Part shown: one piece after another, positions 18,001 through 22,467 of the stretch | How positions within the stretch are numbered: position 1 is the stretch's first letter | Layout: each line of letters opens with the position of its first letter | NCBI GenBank assembly: GCA_014360335.1 | Contig: JACIXS010000341.1 | Location: forward strand, 540-64,539 | Origin: a bacterium | GTDB taxonomy: Bacteria; DUMJ01 | Direction: 5' to 3' | Length of the DNA: 64,000 bases | Program-made: the position numbers

Positions 18001-21000
18001 GTTTTGCTACTCTACTTTTCATCTCTCCAGCTGCTTTGTTAGTAAATGTAACCCCTAATATATTCTCTTCAGGTACGTCCAATTCTTTGACAAGATAGGC
18101 GATTTTGTATGTTATAACCCTAGTCTTACCACTTCCAGCCCCAGCAAGAACCAGAAGTGGTGCTTCAGTATAGAGAACTGCCTCTCTCTGTTGTGGATTC
18201 AATTCGTCTAGGAAGAACATTTTCTAGGTTAAACTTTTTCACTCTCTGGGATTTCTTCCTCTAGATAAACCTCTTTACTATCCTCATCATAGACAAATAA
18301 TTCGGCATACCTACCCCAATCTATAGCTATCTCCATCTGGGCTTGGGCTTCACTAGTGCTAAATTTTGTCTCTAACAATTCAATAAAGAATTCTATTGGC
18401 ATTCTATGGTTAGATTTATTCTTTAAGACTTGAATTATCTGCTGGATGAATGGAACATTAGCCAATATCTGTTTCCTAAATATCTCCTTCTTTTCTAGGA
18501 CATCTGCCTCTGCAAAGACTTTTCCTATCTCTGTAACCGATATATCTCCACCTGTTGTATCTACAAATTTTAATAATTCTGCTGCCTCTATAACTGGTTG
18601 AATATCTGCTAGGTCCATACTTAAGTCTTCTGCTATCTTATAGATATCTTCTTTTCTTTCTAACTCTGCAACAAGTTCTACAAATCCAGCTATGGCTCCT
18701 ACTCTTACATGAGGAAGGGGAATTCCATACCTCTCTGGCCTTGAGGGCTTAGTTGCTATAGGTTTACCCATCATAATACTGTAGATACGGTCAACCAATC
18801 TTAAAAACTCCTCTGATTCTCTATCTCTCCAGTACGGTATATTTACATAGATCTCCTGCTTTATCCTTCCTGGGTTCTTATCTAAAACTACTACTCTATC
18901 AGCTAAATATACAGCCTCCTCAATACTATGGGTTATAAGAAGAATCGTCTTGGTAGGGATTCTCTTTTCAATCCATAACTCTAAGAGGTCGTTACGAAGG
19001 TTTTCTGAAGTAAGTACATCTAAGCCTGAGAATGGTTCATCCATAAGAAGAACCTCAGGCTCTACTACTAAAGCCCTAGCAAAACCAACTCTTTGTCTCA
19101 TTCCCCCAGACAATTCCTTAGGATATGCACTTTCAAATCCATCTAAACCTATTAGATCTATCATCTTTAGAGCTCTCTCCCTACGTTCTTTAAGGGGAAC
19201 TCCTTTGGCTTTTAGTCCTATCTCTACGTTTTCGAGGACCGTTAACCACGGGAAGAGTGCTGCAGTTTGAAATACCATAGATACTCCTGGATTTACCCCT
19301 TCTACCAGTTTCCCTCTATATAAGACCTCCCCATGGGTTGGTTTTATAAGACCTGCTATCGCTCTAACTATAGTGGATTTTCCTGCCCCAGACGGTCCTA
19401 AAATAGCTACAAATTCTCCCTCTTCAAGAGAGAGATTTATGTCCTCTACAACGGTTATCCTAGTGTTGTTGGGCATATCAAAAATTATGGTTAGGTTTTT
19501 TGTCTCTATAATCGCCATGGCTTTATTATATCACAATGAGTAATGCTCTTCAGCAAGCCAGTATAATCTTCTCCAGAAGAACCTATTGATTAGAGTAACA
19601 GTTATAATCATCATTATAGTGCTAGCAGTCAAAACCCCAATGTCTCCTTTGTCCGCAGAATTACTAATTAATGCCCCCAAACCTCTTACCATTATGATTC
19701 TACCTCCAAAATGGACATACTCAGATACTATAGATGCGTTCCAAGCCCCTCCAGTAGCGGTAATGGCTCCGGTTACCAAGTAGGGAAGGACCGCTGGTAT
19801 AATCAACCTTCTCCATCTTTCCATCCCCTTAAGTTGAAATACCTCTGCTGCCTCTTTTAGGTCTGATGGTATAGACATCGCCCCTGCTATTACATTAAAG
19901 AGTATATACCACTGCGTTCCTAAGAGCATAAGTAGTATAGAAGCTACCGACAATCCTCCTCTTAGGTTTATTAGCCACATGAGTATGATAGGAAATACTG
20001 CTGTAGCAGGTATAGATGCCAGAATCTGCACTATTGGTTGCATTACTGTAGATATCTTTGGATTCATACCAATTGTTACTCCAACTGGCAGAGTCCAAGC
20101 TATAGAAAGAACTACTGCTATAGTTACCCTTAATAGGGTGAGAAGGTCACTAATTATAATCTCTCCCCACATAGATACAGGAACACTAGAGATAAGAAAT
20201 ATTAGTCTTACAGATGCATATCCTATTATAATTAGAAACAACCCGAGGAATATGAACTTTAATATAGGAAAAGGATTAACTCTTCTTTCGATATACTCTT
20301 TCTTAGAGAATCTATTAGTTATCCTTTCCATAAAGGTATCTATTACCTGATTTATCCTTGTCAAAATGGTAGACCTCTGTAATATCATTAGAATAGTCGA
20401 TGTTGGAACATTATTTCTAGCTGTTAATTCTACCTTAAACTTTTGAGCCCAAGCTATTAGAGGTCTCCATATTAGTTGGTCTATAAGAACTATTATAGCT
20501 ATCATTGTTGCTAGCCCCATAAGAATAGCTTTAGTATCTCCTTTAATAGCTGCCAGTTGAAGATATGAACCCAAGCCTGGAAGTCTAAAATCTCTATCAC
20601 CGAGGGTAAACATTTCACACGCCATTAAAAAGAACCAGCCACCGGCTACAGACATCATAGAATTTAATACCAATCCTATAGTAGAGTATGGAAGTTCTAC
20701 ATATAGAAACTTTTGAAATGGAGAAAGGTTAAAAACTTCTGACGCTTCTCTTAAGTCTCTCGGTAAAGAGCTCATAGAGCCATACACACTGAAAGCCATA
20801 TTCCACACTTGCCCAGTAAATATAAGGACTATGCTACCAAGCTCAACTCCGATTCTACCATAGGGGAAAATAGCTATTAATCCTAAGATAACCCCTGGCA
20901 TAAAAGATAATACGGGTACAGATTGTAGTATATCTAAGAGTGCTATCATAAAGGGCTCTAAGGTTTTATTATGGCTAGCGATATAACCGTAAGTTATGGA

Positions 21001-22467
21001 AAATGCCAGAGAAAGGATATAAGCCAAGAACTGCCTCAAAATAGAAAACCATGCATAAACTGGGAGATTTTTAGGGGATAATGATATATTTAATGTGTAA
21101 GTAGGAATCTCTCTCCACTCTTTGGCGGTACTTATGATACCATATATAAATGCAAAGAGGAGAAGAATTATTCCAACATCAATTATAGATATCTTTACTC
21201 TTCTTATCGGTATTGTTCTATAAATCAAGTAGACATCTCCTTCTAAATGGATTTTAAGGCTTGCGTTCTATTATATCATAATGCTCATAAAGAGAAAGAA
21301 GATATTAATGGGAGCTAGAAGTGAAATAATTCTTCTAGCTCCCATTTTAAAATTACTTCTTTTTAGATGTTCCTACTAATTTTTTAGTTTCGGAGGATTT
21401 ATATATCATTTCTAAGATCCTAGTAACCTGTGCTGCTTCTTCTGCCTTTACTAGAGGCTCTTTGTCATTTATAAGGCAGTCCACCCAATAGGCAATCTCT
21501 CTATCATAGAGAGACTCTTGGCTTCTAGTTGGAACTGGTGCTATGTCCCATAGCCTATTATTACCTTCTTTATTTATGGTAAGAACATTATTTACAAGTC
21601 TAGCTCCTCCCTTAGTTCCACATAACACCGAGCCATGCTCGTCCTCTTTTATGTTTAAAGCCCAAGAGGCTTTAACTACTATAGTGGCACCACTTTCTAA
21701 CTTTACAAAGCCAAATGCAGAATCCTCTACCTCAAATGACTTTGGATCCCATGGTCCCCAGGCGTTATATCCACCTAATGGAGCTAACTCCTTATAAGAA
21801 GAACCCAAAATCTCTACAGGTTTAGAATAATCTCCCATAAGCCATAGCGTTAAATCCAGAGAATGTGTACCTATATCTATTAATGGTCCACCACCCTGCT
21901 TCTCTTTGGATAAAAATACCCCCCATGTTGGCACCCCTCTTCTTCTGAGGGCTAAGGCTTCCGCATAGTATATCTTGCCAAGCTCTCCATCTAATATCAT
22001 CCTTTTCAAGAGTTGAGCATCATCAGAGTATCTAGATTGGTAACCTACGCTTAGTTTAAGCCCAGTTTCTTTGGCTGTCTTTACCATCGCATCTGCTTCC
22101 TCTGATGTTATTGCCATAGGCTTCTCACAGAGGACATGTTTACCAGATCTCAGTGCATCTATTGTCATAGGTGCATGTAAGTTGTTTGGGGTGCAGATAC
22201 TTACAGCATCGAGGTCTTTCATCTCTAATAGTTCTCTATAATCAGTAAACACCTTTGCCCCTGGGGCTCCATATCTTTCTGCCCCAGCTTTTGCCCTTTC
22301 TGGAATGATATCACAGAAAGCTACAACTTCTACTAGGTCAGAAATTTTTGCATAACCCTCTAGATGAACTCTGGAGATCCCACCTACTCCAATAATCCCT
22401 ACTCTCAATTTCTTCTTACCTCTTCGCACAAGACACCTCCAAAATTTAATAAATTTTTCCCTAATTA

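Follow-up and report, generated by a model that had tools for sequence, protein, structure and literature searches.

A COG4986/PF09821 permease-ATPase pair as a candidate binding-protein-independent ABC importer whose relatives are linked to magnesium homeostasis

Cyanobacterial NrtABCD and CmpABCD (NitT/TauT family; cryo-electron microscopy structures 8w9m, 8wm7 and 9u9z) are the closest solved relatives of both subunits of an ATP-binding cassette (ABC) transporter encoded in a 64,000-nucleotide stretch of bacterial DNA (contig JACIXS010000341.1, positions 540 to 64,539, assembly GCA_014360335.1), referred to at its full length as the window. The window transporter has its two transmembrane domains (TMDs) fused in one permease, whereas the permease of NrtABCD and CmpABCD is a homodimer of a single-domain subunit and periplasmic NrtA or CmpA is needed. 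One of their ATPase subunits also has a C-terminal regulatory domain, but it is binding-protein-like and not a winged helix. Like the window pair, the ferric-ion transporter FbpBC (9j4r) combines a single-chain permease of two BPD_transp_1 domains with one ATPase gene. The nucleotide-binding domain of FbpC is among the structural matches to the window ATPase (rank 19), but FbpBC-type ATPases are without the PF09821 domain that the window ATPase carries. ThiP and YnjC are further fused double permeases of type I importers. The FbpBC, ThiP and YnjC systems have the dedicated binding proteins FbpA, TbpA and YnjB. In MetNI and ModBC, a C-terminal domain on each ATPase subunit is placed to dimerise below the nucleotide-binding domains, and MetN is among the structural matches to the window nucleotide-binding domain (ranks 13 and 50). 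Their regulatory folds, ACT-like C2 and TOBE, differ from the tandem winged helix predicted for the window tail, and the likeness is one of analogy, not homology.

In 2012, Li et al. reported a transporter of the same architecture as the window copy from Candidatus Liberibacter asiaticus (CLIBASIA_02415/02420), which they termed a 'possible novel ABC system' (PMC3688454). Its TMDs are in tandem in one protein, its ATPase has a PF09821 tail for which they predicted a winged helix, and they could detect no binding protein anywhere in the 1.2-Mb genome. The authors termed its homologue group 'small', proposed no function and called a role in transport into question (PMC3688454). The L. crescens orthologue, annotated as COG4986, counts among the essential genes of that species, and expression of the Ca. 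L. asiaticus gene rises 7-fold in planta (PMC4837290). The window copy differs from the Ca. L. asiaticus system in its order, permease then ATPase, in being followed by pcrA and in its Dictyoglomota-like source of low guanine-plus-cytosine content. The architecture (COG4986 plus PF09821) is already known, and the window pair is another member of a large uncharacterised family. What is new here is the association of COG4986/PF09821 relatives with the M-box riboswitch, corA and mgtC. From this genomic association we propose, tentatively and at rather less than an even chance, that the pair is a binding-protein-independent, ATP-driven ABC importer for Mg2+ or divalent-cation homeostasis in which the acidic tail of the ATPase is regulatory.

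A self-contained two-gene transporter outside the named NitT/TauT subfamilies

Both open reading frames (ORFs; Table 1) lie on the minus strand where the first-pass annotation of the window had placed them, co-directional, with the permease upstream and the ATPase downstream. Pfam detects two BPD_transp_1 (PF00528) stretches in the permease (98 bits; cutoff 26.4). The internal duplication that the annotation had read from the sequence is real, since the two halves share 28% identity (E 3e-26); equally real are the two EAA loops that it had named (PRDLREASEVF, aa 156-166, and PSDLKEAAEVF, aa 454-464), which place the protein among the permeases of type I importers. The TTG start is preceded by AGGAG and is supported by the existence of homologues of exactly 565 aa; permease homologues are all ~565-590 aa long. 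The solved structures closest to the permease are CmpB (E 1e-16) and NrtB (E 1e-14).

The ATPase carries the Pfam domain ABC_tran (PF00005) on aa 25-163 (E 3.6e-34). Its translation contains Walker A (GPSGAGKST, 41-49), the Q-loop glutamine Q84, the signature (LSGGM, 136-140), Walker B (VLLMDE, 156-161) and the H-loop His197, all of which are invariant in 35 homologues. The protein is an ABC ATPase with the canonical Walker A, signature and Walker B motifs already noted at first pass and, with every catalytic motif intact, it looks active. The nucleotide-binding domain is nearest to NrtC/NrtD and CmpC/CmpD (33-37% identity; TM-score ~0.85-0.9 on the target). An AlphaFold2 (AF2) model of the full ATPase reached a mean pLDDT of 87.6, and its matches in Foldseek were ABC nucleotide-binding domains only.

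The C-terminal extension of ~170 aa had been likened to the AAA_assoc_C domain. A Pfam hidden Markov model search bears this out: PF09821 covers aa 293-411 (18286-18642) over its full length (1-119/119) with an E-value of 6e-42 and 143.4 bits against a cutoff of 27.6. The annotation had also considered that the extension might prove to be a common domain of known function; the domain is common but has no known function. An AF2 model of the isolated tail (aa 266-429, from a 21-sequence alignment) gave a pLDDT of 92.4 and a pTM of 0.84 and shows two helix-helix-helix-hairpin modules, in agreement with the full-length ATPase model. The fold is thus confidently predicted to be a tandem winged helix. 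Compared with the Protein Data Bank (PDB) in Foldseek, the tail matched generic winged helices with probabilities of 0.85-1.0 and every E above 0.01, among them O-methyltransferase N-domains, MarR/OhrR, DtxR/IdeR/MntR, GntR and the FokI recognition domain. No solved structure containing PF09821 came up in a profile search of the PDB, which matched only spurious designed helical repeats.

The tail is strongly acidic. Its net charge is -17 in the window copy, and over 35 homologues the median charge is -15 and the median isoelectric point 4.55 (range 4.27-4.92). Asp or Glu occupies 10 of the 45 tail positions conserved at ≥85%. The helices at the recognition positions, 303-315 (LADIQPVIEAAEL) and 388-404 (TSEAQAQMEIAIDWGRY), are acidic or hydrophobic with almost no basic residues. 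Because of this acidity and of the near lack of basic residues in the recognition helices, the tail is unlikely to bind DNA: it has the fold of a winged-helix DNA-binding regulator and appears to lack the basic recognition helix or wing. A regulatory module that contacts protein or senses a ligand or ion is more plausible.

Conservation of the pair was examined in 80 genome loci and 80 metagenome loci fetched with permease profiles, together with further annotated loci. A tail-bearing ATPase was found by tblastn within 1.5 kb of the permease in 155 of 171 loci. The other 16 all end at a contig edge within 1.5 kb of the permease, so that none is truly without an ATPase and the score among testable loci is 155/155. 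The pairing of permease and ATPase is obligate. The ATPase gene comes first in Acidobacteriota, and the permease gene comes first in the window, Dictyoglomus, Caldisericota and Firmicutes.

The first-pass annotation had reported that no binding protein is adjacent, and the neighbourhood comparison extends this observation: the gap ahead of the permease contains none, and none is encoded beside the pair, either here or in the 155 related loci. No binding-protein gene occurs among the recurrent neighbours in the 80 genome loci, nor in 11 distinct Pfam-annotated loci from Dictyoglomus, Caldisericota and Firmicutes. Thirty neighbours that sit tightly beside the pair on the same strand were scanned; the 25 Pfam families listed for them, out of 30, are heterogeneous and include no binding-protein family. 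In the 64-kb window, a scan of all five secreted proteins and one N-terminally truncated binding-protein gene detected none of the NMT1/TauA type. The window pair, with its PF09821 tail and its adjacent duplicated permease without a binding-protein gene, is a member of COG4986/PF09821. It is a self-contained two-gene ABC transporter, comprising one polypeptide with both TMDs of a type I importer fold and a tailed ATPase, the latter presumably present in two copies per complex.

The annotation had called the system 'NitT/TauT-type', which stands at the level of the superfamily, where NrtBCD and CmpBCD are its closest relatives, and fails below it. The best matches fall within this family, yet all NCBIfam equivalogs score far below cutoff (SaoA 221 against 360, TauB 216 against 357, ntrCD 188 against 292, ntrB 77 against 209 and TauC 37 against 342). 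In NrtB, Arg127 in TM3 and Arg208 in TM5 make a positively charged cavity that is needed for the nitrate response (PMC10945777). Direct alignment places Q102 of TMD1 and A404 of TMD2 at Arg127, and M191 and I489 at Arg208; the gate residue Leu132 corresponds to L107 and T409, and the gate residue Leu216 to F199 and N497. The family alignment shows no variation at Q102, M191, A404, T409, N497 and F199, and either Ile or Val at position 489. Judged from these alignments, the anion-cavity arginines, that is, the anion-binding signature, are gone from both permease halves. The system accordingly lacks an equivalog score above cutoff, a cognate NMT1/TauA/NrtA-type binding protein in the window or in related loci, and basic cavity residues. 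Because the anion-binding signature is lost in both halves, we class it as a distinct sister of NitT/TauT that appears to lie outside the named anion-transporter subfamilies.

The family is far larger than the 'small' group of the earlier description. More than 8000 clusters at 90% identity were found for each protein among the candidates scored, and an exhaustive HMMER search with the tail alone returned 1244 clusters at 50% identity. The exhaustive search was needed to show this spread, since a word-indexed search with the tail gave just 8 short fragments. The best 120 clusters listed for each protein are all more than 50% identical, and their sources include Dictyoglomus, Caldisericia, Sulfotelmatobacter (Acidobacteriota), Ammonifex, Alicyclobacillus, Kyrpidia, Paenibacillus, Brevibacillus and Sporolactobacillus. 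DWGRYAE and GD..LT..G are among the conserved motifs. The window copy is 92-94% identical to proteins of uncultured metagenome-assembled genomes and 77% identical to a cluster named under Dictyoglomus by one source.

Magnesium-related elements beside the relatives

In B. breve, a published M-box precedes an ABC transporter with a COG4986 permease (PMC5746004). Among the Firmicute loci examined here, 5 of 10 carry an M-box (RF00380) directly upstream of the permease and on the same strand, scoring 145-157 bits in Rfam against a gathering threshold of 44. These loci belong to five Bacillales genera (Kyrpidia tusciae, Brevibacillus ginsengisoli, Paenibacillus thalictri, Sporolactobacillus and Gorillibacterium massiliense). 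In Kyrpidia, an intrinsic terminator follows the M-box aptamer ~40 nt before the permease start, a layout that would be expected of an OFF switch. Paenibacillus sp. GP183 is without an M-box and has corA immediately downstream of the pair. A CorA-like gene also lies two genes upstream in one metagenomic locus (L096), and two Blastocatellia loci form compact ATPase-permease-mgtC operons in which mgtC follows after gaps of 15 and 47 nt. For the ~310 flanking positions, well under one Mg2+ gene is estimated by chance, assuming that such genes are few among the several thousand of each genome. The first-pass annotation had given the substrate as unknown; no substrate is assigned here either, but the relatives are wired into the Mg2+ regulon through the M-box, corA and mgtC.

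The NrmT Mg2+ transporters, too, came to light through their association with the M-box (PMC4072509). None of the known M-box-controlled Mg2+ transporters in the literature is of the ABC type, and a literature search for an ABC-type Mg2+ transporter returned nothing relevant. The M-box-controlled proteins MgtE, CorA, MgtA and NrmT have no relation in sequence or fold to the COG4986 pair, which is ABC-type and ATP-driven. The acidic cytoplasmic tail recalls the Mg2+-sensing domains of MgtE and CorA.

Some Bacillales loci hold a second conserved leader of ~250 nt (L089:3947-4263, L085:5975-6270, L170:2994-3260 and L171:2875-3261), which sits between the M-box terminator and the permease and also occurs in the M-box-less Paenibacillus GP183. 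It contains a strong ribosome-binding site and a short upstream ORF that starts MD(S/G)SS(R/Q) and is conserved just at its start, as well as a GCAGGAA..TTCC hairpin and the motif GTCTGTCyATTTTCAG; a terminator of its own (ACTCTCCC..GGAGAGTTTTT) lies immediately ahead of the permease. The leader matches no Rfam family and may be a previously undescribed attenuator or riboswitch arranged in tandem with the M-box. A DUF1003 gene located two genes away from the ABC pair in Alicyclobacillus cycloheptanicus is under the control of an M-box scoring 148 bits (L084:10680-11633, minus strand); DUF1003, itself uncharacterised, may also belong to the Mg2+ regulon.

Candidate function and competing explanations

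If the pair does serve Mg2+ or divalent-cation homeostasis, one fused permease and two ATPase subunits would form a complex that works without a binding protein and acquires Mg2+ or another divalent cation, in the simplest form by ATP-driven Mg2+ import when Mg2+ is scarce. The translocation cavity would be without the basic residues of the nitrate/bicarbonate relatives and would be lined by invariant Gln, Asn, Ser, Thr and Met. The acidic tails would hold the two nucleotide-binding domains inactive when the cell is replete, possibly triggered by direct binding of Mg2+ to conserved acidic tail residues. Such regulation would resemble the trans-inhibition of MetNI and ModBC and the Mg2+ gating of MgtE and CorA. 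The more specific proposal, that COG4986/PF09821 is an unrecognised class of ATP-driven, binding-protein-free Mg2+ importers of the type I fold, gated by a Mg2+-sensing acidic tandem winged helix, is possible but doubtful. Were Mg2+ import without a binding protein confirmed, an ABC class would be added to the short list of bacterial Mg2+ transporters, and a natural type I ABC importer would be found to work without a binding protein. The class would span Acidobacteriota, Firmicutes, Actinobacteria, Dictyoglomota, Caldisericota and Liberibacter. The family has a very large membership and exceptional conservation, includes an essential member in L. crescens and has been retained through genome reduction in the agent of citrus greening. 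With the evidence from riboswitches and neighbouring genes, what was an 'unknown ABC transporter' becomes a testable hypothesis.

Several observations weigh against a role in Mg2+ import. Neither Rfam nor a covariance model of the M-box (R1) finds an M-box in the window. Model R1 found no M-box in ~160 non-Bacillales loci, and Rfam found none in 24 of these loci or in 16 further loci, 14 of which are metagenome loci with long leaders. Most of the ~160 loci are also without a Mg-related neighbour. With both models null there, the M-box link cannot be generalised past Bacillales and the B. breve case, and with M-box and Mg neighbours missing elsewhere the magnesium link is lineage-restricted and reaches the window copy by orthology only. 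The window and Paenibacillus copies share an identical architecture, with 43% identity in the permease, 60% in the nucleotide-binding domain and 51% in the tail. M-boxes, moreover, control non-transporter genes too. The sole acidic transmembrane residues, E205 and E503, are also kept in the anion carriers NrtB and CmpB. Met191 and Met192 are invariant at positions lining the NrtB cavity, and invariant Met in a cavity provides soft ligands that fit transition metals better than Mg2+. The binding-protein search of the host covered 64 kb, and a binding protein could be encoded elsewhere in its genome. Finally, the B. breve system, in which Bbr_0406 putatively carries PF09821, is reported as bile-induced.

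Some of these points would fit a transporter that responds to low Mg2+ and carries something else, such as Mn2+, Co2+, Ni2+, Zn2+ or a Mg2+-substituting polyamine, or that expels toxic metals entering through de-repressed Mg2+ channels. Such a transporter would have the same M-box, corA and mgtC associations, and Met191/Met192 and the other soft or neutral ligands at cavity-lining positions would suit it; some M-box-linked transporters were, in addition, first assumed to be carriers of other metals (PMC4072509). Known M-box regulons are nevertheless mostly made up of Mg2+ importers, and no metal-specific regulator or chaperone was seen among the neighbours examined. The position of mgtC also recalls mgtCB, in which mgtC is classically paired with a Mg2+ importer. 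We regard a different cargo as rather unlikely, though a serious competitor to Mg2+ or divalent-cation homeostasis. An ordinary NitT/TauT importer of a small anion or organic compound (nitrate, bicarbonate, a sulfonate or a vitamin-precursor-like molecule) with an unlinked binding protein, in which the tail is a regulatory add-on, would explain why the best sequence and structure matches are NrtB/CmpB, NrtC/D, CmpC/D, TauB/C and SsuC. The C-terminal ATPase domains of NrtC and CmpC are regulatory, and the limit of the host search to 64 kb leaves room for the unlinked gene. This reading is nonetheless improbable, given that no binding protein is adjacent in 155 loci from several phyla and none is assignable in the Ca. 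L. asiaticus genome, and that equivalog scores are far under cutoff and the cavity arginines are lost in both halves. The conservation of more than 50% between phyla looks, in our judgement, unusual for a nutrient-specific importer, and the M-box, corA and mgtC links would have no obvious explanation.

The tandem winged helix of the tail, with its weak matches to MarR, DtxR/IdeR/MntR, GntR and the FokI recognition domain, raises the idea that the system is not primarily a transporter but a 'trigger transporter' whose DNA-binding tail couples a membrane signal to transcription, and Li et al. did question a transporter role (PMC3688454). The tail is acidic in all 35 homologues, however, with recognition helices nearly devoid of basic residues; no conserved operator-like repeats or target genes were seen, and neither the ATPase nor the permease shows any damage to its motifs, which are highly conserved. 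A signalling role of this kind is very improbable. Efflux of bile salts, detergents or other amphiphiles has an equally slim chance. It is suggested by the listing of B. breve Bbr_0406-0407 among bile-response ABC transporters in the secondary literature. The BPD_transp_1 fold is, to our knowledge, known from importers only, which speaks against efflux, and the family is abundant in organisms that do not encounter bile, namely soil Acidobacteriota, thermophiles and a phloem pathogen. Envelope or cation stress, relayed through the M-box, could also account indirectly for the bile induction.

The window locus and its surroundings

The coordinates of the transporter and of the adjoining features are collected in Table 1.

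Table 1. Features of the COG4986/PF09821 locus in window coordinates
Feature	Position	Strand	Details
Fused double permease, 565 aa, TTG start	19531..21228	(-)	TMD1, linker, TMD2; COG4986-type 'duplicated permease'
TMD1, ~aa 40-265	20434..21111	(-)	EAA loop 1 at 20731-20763; invariant LLDxLQSxP, FTGQVWNM, NSMMSxAGGWFFLMAxEM (family alignment)
Inter-domain linker, ~aa 266-345	20194..20433	(-)	low conservation, variable length; one extra hydrophobic helix ~318-345 (hydropathy); predicted topology
TMD2, ~aa 346-565	19534..20193	(-)	EAA loop 2 at 19837-19869; invariant QxxASxPATA, GTQWYxLFN, GGAWNxSIVxEY
ABC ATPase with C-terminal extension, 429 aa	18229..19518	(-)	start 12 nt past permease stop
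Nucleotide-binding domain core, aa 25-163	19030..19446	(-)	Walker A 19372-19398; signature 19099-19113; Walker B and catalytic Glu 19036-19053
C-terminal domain, aa 266-429	18232..18723	(-)	two predicted tandem winged-helix modules, ~273-328 and ~356-418, after disordered linker 253-264
pcrA/uvrD-type helicase	16124..18220	(-)	start 8 nt past ATPase stop
Hairpin, 12 bp, 10-nt loop	21310..21343	(-)	10 nt past stop of upstream oxidoreductase gene; read from sequence
Short leader	21229..21300	(-)	promoter-like TGaTATAAT (TGnTATAAT type) 21270-21278; AGGAG ribosome-binding site ~21237-21242

The first-pass annotation had set the pair between a sugar dehydrogenase and pcrA. The upstream gene encodes a GFO/IDH/MocA oxidoreductase, separated from the permease by a 124-nt gap (21229-21352), and the downstream placement needs one refinement: pcrA begins so close to the ATPase stop that, on account of this spacing, it is probably co-transcribed with the ABC pair. 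No terminator was detected between the ATPase and pcrA in the window. An essential DNA helicase is thus apparently driven by a transporter promoter, an arrangement absent from the other lineages examined. The genes downstream of the pair differ in every other lineage examined, and pcrA was rejected as a functional partner because it lies downstream in no other lineage.

The 12-bp terminator that the annotation had placed in the upstream gap corresponds to the hairpin in Table 1, which the terminator scan missed because its loop is longer than 8 nt. It is probably a terminator that shields the ABC operon from upstream transcription. The gap contains no ORF, and the mis-called small gene for a binding protein that the annotation had thought conceivable there is absent. 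A consensus scan of the leader places a -35/-10 pair nearby, at 21279-21251. The window leader gave no Rfam match at E up to 1 and no match to model R1. The window operon appears to have a plain promoter and no riboswitch and to be an ordinary, unregulated-looking member of the family.

Four binding proteins are encoded in the window, all of the SBP_bac_5 family (144-1739, 25822-27801, 28872-30845 and 43367-45349). As partners of the ABC pair they were rejected on three grounds: their family is a different one, their position is on the opposite strand or far off, and they do not recur beside the system in other loci. At least two of the four have no Opp/Dpp-type permease genes after them. The window gene at 27862-28866 encodes a soluble product whose N-terminus resembles that of the product of 7638-8660. 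Inside the pcrA ORF, at 16384-16482 on the minus strand, Rfam family RF03531 ('C. difficile sRNA included into helicase gene') matches with 57.4 bits against a gathering threshold of 65.2 (E 8e-8); the match is probably just conserved helicase coding sequence.

Clustering of the neighbours in the 80 genome loci yielded genes for a peptidyl-prolyl isomerase (PPIase), GH77, GH2, an acyltransferase, DinB and hemerythrin. These reflect lineage synteny within Acidobacteriota only and were set aside as functionally uninformative. In a single Acidobacteriaceae locus (L054:7748-8422), the ABC ATPase is preceded at 49 nt, in the same orientation, by kdpC, which encodes a subunit of the K+-transporting P-type ATPase and is a further neighbour concerned with cation homeostasis. 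S-adenosylmethionine (SAM) riboswitches in two Alicyclobacillaceae-like loci (L084:5830-5939 and L086:5969-6078, both minus strand) control divergent genes of the methionine-biosynthesis type (Cys_Met_Meta_PP, Abhydrolase_1 and homoserine dehydrogenase) beside the ABC pair. They explain part of the long intergenic regions at these loci and are unrelated to the transporter. In a metagenomic locus, an Acido-Lenti-1 small RNA (RF01687, 48.3 bits) is located at L159:2237-2282 on the plus strand, within the 791-nt region upstream of the ABC pair.

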